DNA of 64,000 nucleotides from Opitutales bacterium (GTDB taxonomy: Bacteria > Verrucomicrobiota > Verrucomicrobiia > Opitutales > PNEW01), in assembly GCA_965197745.1 (NCBI GenBank), contig CBDANS010000007.1, positions 1 to 64,000 of the forward strand, given 5' to 3'. Both the position numbers and the translations under genes were made by a program. Shown piece after piece: positions 17,043 through 25,911 of this stretch. The number at the start of each line of letters is the position of its first letter. The first letter of the stretch is position 1. The notes under the pieces were generated by a model. It saw only the letters and a program-made list of their open reading frames with translations, had not been told where the DNA came from and did not search any database.

Positions 17043-17778
17043 GTTTATCCAAGCGGTACGACGTTCAGAAGGGCTGCAGGTAAAGCCACCGAAAAAGCGT
17101 AGACCCCGTCAACGGGTCTCTACAGGGCCGCCTACTAAAGCAACCGGTCGCAATCACGTCTGGTCCTGGGACTTTGTCCATGACCGCACAGACAATGGCG
17201 GTCCATTAAAGATGATGACTCTGATCGATGAATATACGCGTCAATGTCTGAGTATCCGGGTCGCTCGTGAACTCACCTCAACTGATGTCCTCTCTGTGCT
17301 TAGCGAGGCCATTGAAGAAGAGGGAGCTCCCAGCTATATCCGTAGTGACAACGGCAGTGTTCCGAGGAGCGAAGCGACGACATGCGAAGCCATTCATTGC
17401 TCATCAGGTGCAGCAGTGGTTGTCCGACAAAAAGATCAAGGCGATCTATATCGATCCGGGCAGTCCCTGGCAAAACGGTTTCATTGAGTCGTTTCACAAC
17501 CGATTACGCGATGAGTGTTTGAACCGTGAAGTGTTGCTCAGCGTGACTGAAGCGCAAGTGGTAATCGAACAATGGCGTCATTCCTACAATAATGAACATC
17601 CCCACAGTCGTTTAGGCTTTAAAAGCCCACTAGAGTTTGTCAGGTTCCTTTCAGATCCTGGCCGCGTTCGGGCTACGCCCTCACTTCGCCAAGATCTCCC
17701 ATATACATCAATCATAAAACCATTAACACCCGGTAACTCTCTCACTTAAAAATTGGTACGAAAAACGGGGTCCGATCA
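17043..17778 (+). mobile_element. IS3-family element A, 5'-truncated (orfB 3' part and right end)
   Basis: NHVWSWDF...IDEYTR...IRSDNG...PWQNGFIESF...ECLN; ends GGGGTCCGATCA; homologous to 25135-25911; micro-insertion at 17360-17391. Confidence 0.9.
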
Positions 17779-17851
17779 ATTGTAAAAGCGTCGTTCATCA
17801 TAGCTACCCTGTTCCGCGGGTAAAAAGAACGACCATGTGCAACTGGTCGGG

Positions 17852-18806
17852 TTACACAAACTGGTCCACCGGGAGAGTTAGTCTGGAGAGGTTAATGTTG
17901 AAGTTAAGTTGGTAGAGGAAGTCAAGGCTTGGGCGCAATGAGGGCGTAGCCCGAATGGAGCCCGAGCCTTCGGTATTGAGGTTTTCAGTGAAGTGCCGTG
18001 GAGTGATGTTGCCGAGGCTGCGGTGGGGTCGGACATGATTGTAAAGCCAGCGCCAATCTTCGATGACCACGCGGGCTTCGGTCAAAGTCCATAACTGTTC
18101 ACGGTTTAAACACTCCTCGCGAAAACGGGCATGGAACGATTCAATGTATCCGTTCTGCCAAGGGCTTGCTGGTTCGATATAGAGGGTTTTGATTTTCATC
18201 GCAGTTAGCCAGGCTCTCAATTGGCTTTCAATGAATGGCTTTGCATGTCGTCGCTTCGCTCCTCGGAACGGAACCGTTGTCGCTACGAATATATTTTGGC
18301 GGCCCATGCCGGTCGAGCAGTTTTTGCATGATACCGCGCACCGTTTCCGCATTGATATGGCGATCAACATGGATCACCCGGCACTCGCGGGTGTACTCAT
18401 CGAGCACGGTCAGCATTTTTAGACTGCCGCCGCGAACCGTCTTATCGTGGATAAAATCCCAGGTCCAAACATGGTCGGGATGTTCGGCCTTTGTCGGTAG
18501 CCCGGTGCAGACACCCCTGCGCCGGCGTCTTGGCTTGCGTGGGGGGATCGCCAGACCCAGTTCACGTCGCAGACCTTGCACGAGACGTTTACCCACCTGC
18601 CAGCCTTCGTCCTTCAACAGCTTCGTGATCTTGGGATAGCCCCACCTCGCGTATTGCCGTGATAACCGCCTTACTGCCGCTTTTAGTTTCGTTAGCCAGG
18701 CATCCGGATGCTTGGCCCTATACGCATAGGTGGAACGGTGCAGCCGAAAGTACCGGCACCCCGCTCGCATCGAACACTGGCCCCGAGTCACAAGTCTCTC
18801 TGCCAC
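17852..18806 (-). pseudogene. IS3 OrfB integrase domain broken by a 32-nt insertion
   Basis: HVWTWDF, LDEYTRE, IRSDNGS, then out of frame FIES...PWQNGYIESF. Confidence 0.88.
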
Positions 18807-18826
18807 TTGCCGCTTGTGCCCAGGGC

Positions 18827-19093
18827 TTACAGTTTTTTTTCGAGGGTCTCCTGCAGGATCTCTATCCCCAGCATCTTGTCCGCCAGCATCCGTTTTAACC
18901 GCGCGTTCTCCTTCTCGAGCTCCTTCATCCGCTTGGCCTGGTTGACATCAATCATCCCAAACTCACGTTTCCAGCGGTGGAAGGTCTGTTCGCTTATGTT
19001 GTTCTCGCGGCATGCTTCCAGGATCGTTTTCCCTTTGTCCGCCTGGCGCAGCATCCGTATTTTCTCTTCGGTCGTGTATCTTTTGCCTTTCAT
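18827..19093 (-). CDS. IS3 OrfA (HTH)
   Basis: MKGKRYTTEEKIRMLRQ...ISEQTFHRWK...LEKENARLKRML. Confidence 0.92.
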   Translation of the reverse strand: MKGKRYTTEEKIRMLRQADKGKTILEACRENNISEQTFHRWKREFGMIDVNQAKRMKELEKENARLKRMLADKMLGIEILQETLEKKL

Positions 19094-19160
19094 TGTCTGT
19101 GTCCTTTCTAGTTGGACCAGACTAACTTTTCAAGTGGACCAGTTTTCGTGGTCACGACCA

Positions 19161-23491: not shown

Positions 23492-23576
23492 ATTTATTTG
23501 CGTCTAATGCCGGATTTTTTAAATTTTATCATAATACTACAATGTTTTTACGCTAAAAGTATTTAAGCTGATATAT

Positions 23577-24239
23577 ATGAACATTCGATTTAAATTATCA
23601 CGTTTTAAAGTAATAACTAGGTGGCGTATACGTCGATTTTTTTATAATATATTAATGTCAATACATTTACCCCTCGTTGAATATGATGATAAGAGATTAA
23701 TAAAGTGGGATACGAAATCTTTAAATCTAATTTCAGTTGATGGTAAATTTCCCGGAATAGTAAGAGGTTTGGGTAGATTAGATTGTTATTTAAGAATACA
23801 AGATGAATTAATCATACAAACCTTTGGTAAGAAAGATTTATATCCGAATCTAAGTGCGTTAGAAGATTTTCTAACATTAAGTCAACTATGGGTTTTTGGT
23901 GCATATGAATTCTTAAGATCTCTTCAACAGTACTTGGAAGCTAAGAAAGATTTAGTTGATGAAAATAAATTTGAAGCTGTTCGTGATATGAAAATAAAAT
24001 TTGAAAGAATTAGAATACCCCTAGCAAAACTTGAACCTGCTAAGCGATTTTCAAATTCTGATGATGTTCCTAAAGGTGCACTTGTGTTAAGTAATGCAAG
24101 AGATAAAGGGTGGTGTTGGAAACTTAACGAAGAGCAATATGTTTGGAGAAAGGAACTTGGGGAAGATTTGCTTTGCTTTTTGGATTTATTCCCTACTCCC
24201 AAAGAATATCTTGATGCTAGTAATAAGAATACGAATTAA
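23577..24239 (+). CDS. hypothetical protein, divergent from brxA
   Basis: 220-aa AT-rich ORF; LSQLWVFGAYEFLR...RIRIPLAK. Confidence 0.6.
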   Translation: MNIRFKLSRFKVITRWRIRRFFYNILMSIHLPLVEYDDKRLIKWDTKSLNLISVDGKFPGIVRGLGRLDCYLRIQDELIIQTFGKKDLYPNLSALEDFLTLSQLWVFGAYEFLRSLQQYLEAKKDLVDENKFEAVRDMKIKFERIRIPLAKLEPAKRFSNSDDVPKGALVLSNARDKGWCWKLNEEQYVWRKELGEDLLCFLDLFPTPKEYLDASNKNTN

Positions 24240-24430
24240 TCTTTTAGTTATATAAAAGTATCTATTAGCTCATCGAAAAGGAATTGTAGATATTACTTCT
24301 AAGTTCCCTTGCGAATCCAGAAGAATGTAGTCTATCGTAAAATCAGTTTTTGGTTTAGTTGATAATCACTAGCGAGCTGATGTTTGTAATAATTTCTATA
24401 TCTTATATAAACTTTCGCGCCATAGTTCAT

Positions 24431-24562
24431 TGATCGGACCCCGTATTTCGTACCAATTATTAAGTGAGAGAGTTACCGGGTGTTAATGGTTTTATGATTG
24501 ATGTATATGGGAGATCTTGGCGAAGTGAGGGCGTAGCCCGAACGCGGCCAGGATCTGAAAGG
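24431..24562 (-). mobile_element. isolated inverted right end of IS3 element A
   Basis: Reverse complement of the last ~132 bp of the copies ending at 17778 and 25911. Confidence 0.88.
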
Positions 24563-25911
24563 TGGAGTGACCCCCAAAAATGGTATCATTAACAGAGAGA
24601 GGTTATCGGGATAAACAGATAACCTCATGAAAAGAAAAAGATACACAACAGAACAGATCATCGCAATACTGCGGCAAGCCGATACCGGAAAAACGGTAGA
24701 GGAAATCTGCCGAGGCAACAACGTGAGTGAACAGACCTTCTATCGCTGGGGTAAAAAGTATGGCAATTTGGAACTAGCCGATGCGAAGCGATTTAAAGAG
24801 CTGGAAAAAGAAAACACCGAGTTGAAGAAGATGCTCGCTGATCAAATGCTTAAGAATCAGGTAATGGAGGAAACGCTGTCAAAAAAGTGGTGAGCCCCAA
24901 GCAGAAGAAGCGAGTAGTAAAAGATGCGGCTGAGAGAGGGCTGTGCTCGTTGCGAAGGGCTTGTTCCTACCTCAGCCTCAGTTGGTCAACTTTCAGCTAC
25001 CAGCCCAAGCAGGCCAGTAAGAAAGCTCAGCGGTTGGCCGAGCGGATTATAACCCTGTCCTGGGAACATCCCTGCTACGGTTACCGGCGCATCCGTGCCT
25101 TGCTCGTAAAGGAAGGCTGGACAACAAACAGGAAGTTTGTTCAGGCAGTACGACGTTCAGAAGGGTTGCAGGTAAAGCCACCTAAAAAGCGTAGACACCG
25201 TCAAGGGGTCTCTACGGGGTCGCCTACTAAAGCAACCGGTCGCAATCACCTTTGGTCCTGGGACTTTGTCCATGATCGCACAGACCATGGCGGTCCATTA
25301 AAGATGATGACTCTGATCGATGTACCGAGGAGCTGAAAGCGACGACACTCAAGCGAAGCGAAGACATATACGCGTGAATGTCTGGATATCCGGGTCGCTC
25401 GTGAACTCCCTCATCGGATGTCCTCTCTGTGCTTAGCGAGGCCATTGAAAAGGAGGGAGCTCCCAGCTATATCCGTAGTGACAACGGCAGTGTTCCGAGG
25501 AGCGAAGCGACGACATGCGAAGCCATTCATTGCTCATCAGGTGCAGCAGTCGTTGTCCGACAAAAAGATCAAGGCGATATATATCGATCCGGGCAGTCCC
25601 TGGCAAAACGGTTTCATCGAGTCGTTTCACAACCGCTTACGCGATGAGTGTTTGAACCGTGAAGTGTTGCTCAGCGTGGCTGAAGCACAAGTTGTAATCG
25701 AACAATGGCGCCAGACCTATAACCATGATCATCCCCACAGTCGTTTAGGCTTTAAAAGCCCACAAGAGTTTGTCACATTCCTTTCAGATCCTGGCCGCGT
25801 TCGGGCTACGCCCTCACTTCGCCAAGATCTCTCATATACATCAATCCTAAAACCATTAATACCCGGGAACTCTCTCACTTAATAATTGGTACGAAAAACG
25901 GGGTCCAATCA
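24563..25911 (+). mobile_element. IS3-family element A, full length but defective
   Basis: Ends TGGAGTGACCCC.../...GGGGTCCAATCA; orfB 24887-25882 broken by insertions at 25323-25365 and 25493-25524. Confidence 0.92.
24627..24893 (+). CDS. IS3 OrfA (HTH)
   Basis: MKRKRYTTEQIIAILRQ...SEQTFYRW...LEKENTELKKML; AAAAAAG slippery motif at its end. Confidence 0.9.
   Translation: MKRKRYTTEQIIAILRQADTGKTVEEICRGNNVSEQTFYRWGKKYGNLELADAKRFKELEKENTELKKMLADQMLKNQVMEETLSKKW

Follow-up and report, generated by a model that had tools for sequence, protein, structure and literature searches.

Short hairpin units at four fixed codons of IS3-family transposase genes in an Opitutales genome

How does the same short block of DNA come to occupy the same codon of two different transposase genes? 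The question is raised by a stretch of 64,000 nucleotides (nt) from an Opitutales bacterium (Verrucomicrobiota; GenBank assembly GCA_965197745.1, contig CBDANS010000007.1, positions 1 to 64,000 of the forward strand), called the window here, in which two divergent insertion sequences (IS) of the IS3 family, elements A and B, share such a block. A preliminary description, made from the letters of the window, had reported 32 nt common to both elements and a 43-nt relative, and had ascribed them to a tiny non-autonomous element inserted independently into each. The 32-nt block indeed stands at 17360-17391 and 25493-25524 (forward strand, element A) and at 18237-18268 (reverse strand, element B); its three copies vary solely at one G/A position, and 0 of 100 shuffles matched it. 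The 43-nt relative is found at 25323-25365 inside GATG..ATAT, and the uninserted allele GATGAATAT at 17227-17235. We hold with moderate confidence that these blocks belong to a family of very small DNA units copied from filled to empty IS3 sites by a templated patch, a process that breaks the transposase genes.

The family pervades the genome of the window, G000 (4.45 Mb, 92% complete). The genome-wide search suggested at the outset was run with the core pattern CCGAGGAGC-N3-12-GCGACGACA and returned 103 matches, against 0 for the reversed control; all but three (100/103) lie inside the orfB genes of IS3 elements. Alignment of copies and a looser scan resolved at least four site-specific units of 33-44 nt, of the general form T[T/A]CCGAG...CA. 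They are given below with their counts, obtained by regular expression over the genome.

S1, LID-E-YT: filled GATG(44 nt, TACC...GACA)TAT, empty GATG-AA-TAT; 30 filled and 8 empty, in A-type context only
S2, NGS-E-F: filled G(33 nt, TTCC...GCCA)TT, empty G-AG/AA-TT; 69 filled and 10 empty (8 AG, 2 AA)
S3, RD-E-C: filled GATG(37 nt, TACC...GCTCA)TGT, empty GATG-AG-TGT; 12 filled and 74 empty
S4, PW-Q-NG: filled TGGC(44 nt, TACCGAGCGAAG...ATAACA)AAC, empty TGGC-AA-AAC; 8 filled and 69 empty

The four sites obey one rule. The unit is placed in sense orientation after the first base of a codon within the catalytic rve part, and the dinucleotide AR that it displaces (AA or AG) completes a GAR (Glu) or CAA (Gln) codon. 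The unit variant is specific to each site, copies within a site differ little, and many filled and empty combinations across sites occur among the IS3 copies. This exchange corrects the first view, which gave the target as G^AAT(T/A) and had the 43-nt relative replace a single A. The empty alleles read G-AG-TT or G-AA-TT, so that AR is swapped for a unit ending in A; once this final A is counted, the 32-nt block becomes 33 nt and its 43-nt relative 44 nt. G^AAT does not describe the target, since unit-free IS3 relatives of other genomes of the order read G-AG-TT in 19 of 21 rows outside G000 (G-GG-TT in the remaining 2) and the A after the unit is part of the inserted DNA. Within G000, likewise, 8/10 empty S2 sites carry AG.

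In the window, the host elements and their filled and empty sites are arranged as follows.

17055..17778, forward strand: 5'-truncated copy of element A (orfB part, IS3-family), from alignment to full copies, its start approximate; right end ...GGGGTCCGATCA
17227..17240, forward strand: empty S1 (L-I-D-E-Y) of the truncated A, GATG-AA-TATACGCG; AA at 17231-17232 is the dinucleotide swapped for the 44-nt unit elsewhere
17360..17392, forward strand: S2 unit of the truncated A, 33 nt, TTCC...GCCA, between S-D-N-G-S and F-I
17465-17478, forward strand: empty S4 of the truncated A, CCCTGGC-AA-AACGG, from copy alignment
17508-17521, forward strand: empty S3 of the truncated A, GCGATG-AG-TGTTTG, from copy alignment
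17844..19161, reverse strand: complete element B, IS3-family; orfA of 100 amino acids (aa) and orfB of 354 aa open once the unit is set aside; slippery run at 18830-18841
18236..18268, reverse strand: S2 unit of element B, GCAAAGC variant, replacing AG of GGT TCC GAG TTT; next codon TTC, not TTT
24431..25911, forward strand: full copy of element A, TGATCGG...CCAATCA, IS3-family; terminal inverted repeats of ~130 nt; A-AAA-AAG slippery site at 24880-24890
25323..25366, forward strand: S1 unit of the full A, 44 nt, TACC...GACA, in GAT-G..A-TAT, with an in-frame TGA
25404..25410, forward strand: one-base deficit of the full A relative to other copies, from frames and alignment; other runs add one letter behind 25407 or 25408
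25493..25525, forward strand: S2 unit of the full A, 33 nt, read from the sequence
25598-25611, forward strand: empty S4 of the full A, from copy alignment
25641-25654, forward strand: empty S3 of the full A, AG at 25647-25648, where the public run X22 has a 37-letter unit instead

A unit-free B copy identical to that of the window matches HTH_Tnp_1 (1.8e-13), HTH_21, rve (3e-22) and rve_3 (5.8e-26), matches by which the host elements are assigned to the IS3 family and the insert is placed inside the DDE core; the pieces of element A match HTH_21 and rve_3. In both elements orfA and orfB lie in the 0 and -1 frames with a slippery site of the A-AAA-AAG type, and the element ends read TGATCGG.../...CCAATCA in A and TGGTCG.../...CGACCA in B. 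The S2 unit stands in differing flanks, GGCAGTG/unit/ATTCATTGCT in element A and GGTTCCG/unit/ATTCATTGAA in element B (minus strand).

Much of the initial picture of a tiny element in transposases survives: the units are discrete and non-coding, have precise ends, sit at conserved rve codons of several diverged IS3 lineages and break the reading frame. At S1 they bring an in-frame TGA, at S2 a frameshift, at S3 both, and at S4 they add 14 codons inside the PWQNG motif; a filled copy would no longer be able to make a full transposase. When the units were set aside by script, orfA and orfB proved open in most young copies (354 or 415 aa in B/B2, 318 aa in A1, 284 aa in A2), and in those copies the units are the sole lesions. 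The full A copy of the window remains frameshifted with both its units set aside, owing to an extra frameshift near 25407. No unit-free intact A-type copy is present in the assembly, and intact B copies number four. The filled copies may be non-autonomous elements living beside a few intact ones, and would either be mobilised by these or have been converted after transposing.

The units themselves are predicted to form small hairpins. Behind a conserved head, T[T/A]CCGAG(GA), stand one or two GC-GNA-GC mini-hairpins, and the 3' end reads ...CA. Hairpin 1, the segment between CCGAGGA and GACGACA, takes the form GC-GAA-GC in 70 units, GCT-GAA-AGC in 33, AC-GTA-GT in 13 and GC-GCA-GC in 7, besides several others. 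Both stem sides are altered in the AC-GTA-GT form, and the hairpin is preserved through the double change from GC..GC to AC..GT in 15 of 138 units as well as through changes of stem length and loop. Hairpin 2 is GCGAAGC in 119/138 units. In the S2 unit both hairpins are exactly GCGAAGC, and GNA loops are retained in the variants. This is the motif of the mini-hairpin DNA d(GCGAAGC)/GCGNAGC, described as extraordinarily stable (PMC13037366), which figures there as a structural motif and not as a genetic element. Rfam searches of positions 16800-26000 of the window and of one tRNA-linked locus returned only tRNAs and chance matches, with no family for the unit. A hammerhead ribozyme core (CCGAGGA-stem-GAC) was considered and dropped, as the invariant positions of that core are not matched and Rfam offers no support. 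When seven empty sites were folded as DNA, AR was not consistently placed in the loop of a hairpin. The empty B site, GG-TTCCGAG-TTT, already holds TTCCGAG, the seven bases with which the unit starts (for example at ~1470-1500 of locus L177; window 18269-18275, reverse strand), and filled B copies read GG-TTCCG-TTCCGAGG at the same place; this may be chance or a clue to origin or targeting.

The age of the units is read from copies that lack them. Relatives were retrieved with the C-terminal piece of B, which stops short of S2, and were found in 13/121 genomes of the order; among the returned loci, those outside the family of the window are all unit-free at S2. No unit occupies S2 in IS3 relatives of G012, G016, G033, G040, G074, G094, G097, G104, G114 and G117, or in the intact B-like copies of G002, which are included in the 21 unit-free rows; two further unit-free rows are G000's own B copy and are not counted among the 21. 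Twelve B-like copies are listed for G002 at an identity of at least 89%, nine with open frames of 354-492 aa and three with frames of 159-173 aa. G000 itself holds unit-free B copies at C4:137754, C7:407131, C7:1353548 and C7:1902161; flank haplotypes assign 9 of its B copies to the filled class and 4 to the empty one. Over ~1.3 kb nothing but the unit and a single flank base separates the two classes: the empty site reads GGTTCC GAG TTT ATT and the filled one GGTTCC G[32]A TTC ATT. As they are otherwise identical, the gain or loss of the unit is younger than any point mutation in the B elements. The units are younger than their host elements.

The single flank base is informative about how the unit arrived. 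The change from T to C three nt past the unit tracks the unit in both B and B2: empty copies, in G000 as in G002, read TTT and filled copies TTC. TTC is not a requirement of the target, because units adjoin TTT in other lineages. On the simplest reading, B-type elements received the unit along with three or more flank bases of a donor. The rare GCAAAGC form of hairpin 2 is shared by the filled B copies and three B2-like copies, several mosaic B/B2 haplotypes occur in the 60 bases around S2, and A/B chimeras joined at the unit were found at C7_1673278 and at L179 of G001. Both orfA subtypes of B, the normal one (100 + 354 aa) and the fused one (415 aa stop to stop), exist filled and empty. Conversion tracts running beyond the insert, which the preliminary description had named as the outcome that would speak against its view, are thus present in the form of flank co-transfer and mosaics, and its independent insertion into A and B is not supported. 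The evidence favours recent copying of DNA from element to element over two clean independent insertions.

Outside IS3 genes the units keep equally select company, having been seen only inside other repeated DNA, which fits spread by copying between paralogous sequences. The core pattern occurs in 5/41 nearest genomes, and in a scan of named genomes those of the listed matches that were judged true by context are from Opitutales, most rows being chance matches in GC-rich genomes. Three units of G000 lie ~70 nt behind tRNA-Gln(CTG) and tRNA-Asn(GTT), inside a duplicate of the T-stem, acceptor 3' strand and CCA. Other tRNA-linked units occur in G001, in a tandem array of period 110 behind tRNA-Ser in G035 and at loci L116 and L119 of named genomes; free-standing arrays directly 3' of tRNA genes occur in at least four genomes. 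In G040 one position of a dispersed palindromic repeat of ~60 nt is filled in 57 copies and empty in 48 (GGGGTC-AAA-CCTT), and in Pelagicoccus mobilis two copies of a small hairpin repeat, one filled and one empty, are adjacent, with GG-AG-CATTG as the sequence replaced. The G040 repeat (GGGGTCAAACCTTAAAT...AATGACCCC) also hosts compound nested units of 51-74 nt (L190-L195, L038, L067, L112, L116).

Several observations were made around the tRNA-linked units. In the tRNA-Ser ahead of the G035 array (L033 1700-1725, tRNA-Ser GGA), the sequence of the unit head, TACCGAGG, natively joins the variable arm to the T-stem; the tRNA-Ser genes of G000 at C7:2027742-2027829 and C7:1460569-1460658 read GGTTCCGGGGG and GGTACCGGGGG, and the first hairpin of the G035 array (GAACC..GGTTC) resembles the variable arm of tRNA-Ser(TGA). 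To judge by these likenesses of sequence, a tRNA-Ser T-arm whose loop expanded may have given rise to the units. Immediately after the tRNA-Asn unit array (G000 C6:355742 onward) comes a gene that starts with what reads as a metallo-beta-lactamase-type HxHxDH motif.

How, then, could a unit pass from one element to another? The account that we prefer starts from units that replace AR at four fixed rve codons. De novo landing would be rare, as suggested by the fact that each site always has its own unit variant; once present in one IS copy, the unit would serve as the source for filling the homologous empty site in further copies or lineages. The transfer would consist of a short donor-templated patch comprising the unit and 0 to ~10 flanking bases, and crossovers at the shared unit, in the course of ordinary recombination among elements, would add to the spread.

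A number of points weigh against this account. The five bases before the G that neighbours the unit differ between A and B (CAGT against TTCC region), yet the 5' boundary is exact, which homology-driven copying fails to explain. A patch with fewer than ~25 flanking bases is atypical of RecA-type gene conversion. That the B event was a gain and not a loss is inferred from the available donors rather than observed. Two units are present in every copy of the A1 and A2 groups (~9 and ~15 near-identical copies) and the assembly holds no intact A copy, so that either every A copy has been converted or an intact A master has been lost. The read evidence consists of assembled contigs, which drop rare variants, and its one RNA library derives from a different sample and may contain DNA. 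With the genome 92% complete, finally, an enzyme gene may have been missed.

The exact boundary implies that something defines the unit ends, be it an enzyme or the behaviour of the hairpins while copying takes place, and it fits an end-defining enzyme. A bolder possibility might be called micro-homing, and we judge it unlikely but worth stating: a dedicated enzyme would recognise the hairpin unit and write exact-ended copies of it into the AR of conserved repeated DNA. The unit would then be either an ultra-small parasite of transposons or a host device turning IS3 transposases off, and this would be a new way of moving oligonucleotide-sized DNA.

An enzyme of the HUH/Y1 type, whose co-occurrence with the units the preliminary description had asked about, is one candidate; a RAYT-like (REP-associated tyrosine transposase, REP standing for repetitive extragenic palindromic) or IS200-type protein would recognise the hairpins, cut at set distances from them and move single-stranded units in trans, each lineage being hit independently. 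We regard this as doubtful. Y1 transposition is not known to lose target bases, whereas two bases are replaced here at every site; independent hits do not account for site-specific unit variants or for a flank base that travels with the unit. Precise ends within differing flanks would suit such an enzyme. So would its distribution at first sight, as Y1_Tnp (PF01797) is matched in 5/5 unit-bearing genomes of the 41 searched, two of which have the highest counts (46 in G040, 26 in G035); it is matched, however, in 17/36 unit-free genomes as well. The sole match of G000, at C6:163380-163706, belongs to a RAYT-like gene split over frames (C6:162300-164700), one of 199 aa with the HUH and Tyr motifs and one of 175 aa with the rest, and no unit-like sequence lies within ~1 kb of it. 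The co-occurrence is thus borne out, but not as a specific one. Unit strand is unbiased with respect to local GC skew (55 against 62), and among B copies replication places 5 filled on the leading and 4 on the lagging strand, with empty copies at 2/2; the test of strand bias is a weak one because units are inherited with their IS. In favour of a single-stranded intermediate are two hairpins with GNA loops, a type described as very stable in DNA (PMC13037366), and the CGTC beside hairpin 1 on the complementary strand, which is the tag of one REP superfamily (PMC3733652). No RVT_1 reverse transcriptase was matched in the 92% complete G000.

A host-encoded silencing system that writes units into IS3 genes, with the tRNA-linked arrays as its store, seems improbable. 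It would make sense of the confinement of all four sites to the catalytic domain of one transposase family, of an S2 that is nearly saturated (69/79) and of the free-standing arrays directly 3' of tRNA genes. Yet no candidate gene was found, the units of G040 and Pelagicoccus lie in harmless small repeats and not in transposases, and the array units differ from the IS units in loop, spacer and tail, for which reason they are not recent donors.

It is highly improbable that the units act like introns or bypass elements, removed from the mRNA or hopped by the ribosome as a regulatory part of the IS. The idea draws on the many near-identical unit-bearing copies whose orfA and orfB are mostly open once the units are set aside, on the common sense orientation after the first codon base and on a location in conserved motifs such as is usual for homing introns and inteins. 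Removal of a whole unit nevertheless leaves the frame shifted: restoring it would need a cut of 31, 42 or 35 nt with one foreign base left behind, which at S2 means 31 of the 32 nt of the block as first delimited, and the S1 and S3 units contain in-frame stops. No Rfam family matches, intact unit-free copies coexist with filled ones, IS3 relatives elsewhere are unit-free, and the full A copy of the window bears a further frameshift.

Four public runs (X1, X3, X8 and X22) were compared, as assembled contigs only, with positions 17783-25950. X22 is the sole RNA library, a metatranscriptome of another sample, while the library kind of X1, X3 and X8 is not on record; 18/30 bins are uncovered in X22 and 14 in X8, and assembled contigs hide starts, ends, strand and rare spliced forms. 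X22 contigs run across the filled sites S1 (record 15, 24726-25449), S2 of A (record 16, 25420-25604) and S2 of B (record 11, 18147-18343) with the units in place, and at 25647-25648 a 37-letter S3 unit replaces AG. Every unit-skipping joint bears the letters of the DNA-level empty allele (AG or CT, AAACT, AGTTTATC, A), and like joints are present in X1, X3 and X8; in X3 a unit-less A-type S2 form reaches a depth of 280 out of ~1400. The units reside in DNA and not in RNA alone. Removal at the RNA level, which had been offered as an alternative reading, finds no favour in contigs that keep the units, and these contig data of one metatranscriptome weakly disfavour splicing.

Hardly tenable is an ancient insert of the common IS3 ancestor, kept identical by selection or concerted evolution with the empty copies as revertants: the same position and variant do recur across lineages with strongly different flanks, and an identical 33-nt tract would be a preferred crossover point, as the chimeras have it, but 21/21 unit-free S2 relatives outside G000 show neither unit nor scar, filled and empty B are otherwise identical, and an exact loss restoring GAG TTT has no donor in G000.

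Some further features of the host elements deserve record. The terminal inverted repeats of element A occupy 24431-24562 and 25780-25911, and their length of ~130 nt accounts for ~45 matches of 132 nt in a genome-wide blastn. A second micro-module shared by A and B, TTCGGGCTACGCCCTCA, lies at 25800-25816 and 17667-17683 (forward), at 17939-17955 (reverse) and, inverted, near 24525-24545, and has 87 copies across the genome. It lies in a loop closed by a 10-bp stem, the sequence of which is not the same in the two elements, AGATCTTGGC/GCCAAGATCT in A and AGGCTTGGGC/GCCCAAGCCT in B, and an A-like copy at C7:160k is without a 22-nt block that includes it. The orfA of B/B2 copies is polymorphic, CTC-GA-GAAGG or CTC-TTT-GAAGG (window ~18914-18916, element B); the latter form fuses orfA and orfB (403 aa from ATG, 415 aa stop to stop), and some B/B2 copies accordingly have a single fused frame of 403-415 aa in place of two. 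Between the IS copies, positions 19160-23500 of the window hold three long reading frames on the reverse strand, with even coverage in X1 and X3 (depth 17.8/7.1).

Known systems offer partial parallels. The small dispersed repeats (SDRs) of Nostoc and other cyanobacteria, reported by Elhai et al. in 2008, are said to be oligonucleotide-sized repeats with a small hairpin, ~21-27 nt long, falling into families SDR1-8, nested in repeats or in their own copies and apparently mobile; we know of no mechanism or enzyme proposed for them since. So described, they would resemble the present units in being oligonucleotide-sized, in their conserved small hairpin, in lodging in other repeats and in lacking a mechanism, but the sequences are probably unrelated, the phylum is another (here Opitutales, Verrucomicrobiota), and the units here measure 33-44 nt, occupy fixed transposase codons and replace two bases. 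Miniature inverted-repeat transposable elements (MITEs), Correia elements, repeat units of pneumococcus (RUP) and Rickettsia palindromic elements are at least 100 nt long, have terminal inverted repeats and usually duplicate their target. They are likewise non-coding, non-autonomous, multicopy and able to sit in genes, whereas the unit begins T[T/A]CC... and finishes ...CA, which do not form an inverted repeat, and two target bases are lost from flanks in which nothing is duplicated. Miniature elements of the IS200/IS605 type, such as palindrome-associated transposable elements (PATE), insert on the 3' side of a set tetra- or pentanucleotide and neither add nor remove target bases; here AR is replaced at all four IS sites and bases are replaced in the G040 and Pelagicoccus repeats as well. 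Homing introns and inteins share the preference for the most conserved codons, the spread from filled to empty sites and the co-transfer of flank markers, but the unit has neither an open reading frame nor a ribozyme fold, shows no sign of splicing and leaves the host gene broken. REPs and REP doublets forming hairpins (REPINs) are palindromes outside genes that often stand as inverted pairs beside a single-copy RAYT gene. The units have in common with them (PMC3116915, PMC3733652) multicopy short hairpins, CGTC beside the hairpin on one strand and a RAYT-like gene in the genome; they differ in being intragenic (100/103 in IS3 orfB), in forming no inverted pairs and in not flanking the RAYT-like gene, and Y1 genes are unspecific to them. 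Full-text searches of the literature found no description of such transposase-lodged inserts, which is not proof of absence.

We file the units as an addition to a little-understood class of very small mobile repeats, their striking habit being the choice of four exact IS3 codons. Little is understood of mobile DNA that measures 33-44 nt and has neither terminal repeats nor a target duplication nor a coding partner, and G000 offers an unusually clean system in which to study it, with over 100 units at four exact codons, host elements that differ in being filled or empty but are otherwise identical and a marker base for flank copying. Should the ends of the unit be set by an enzyme, that enzyme could provide a new tool-like activity for inserting short sequences precisely. 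By whichever mechanism, the units have inactivated the majority of IS3 transposase genes in G000 (69/79 scored S2 sites), and this bears on how bursts of transposons are tamed by bacteria or by rival selfish elements.

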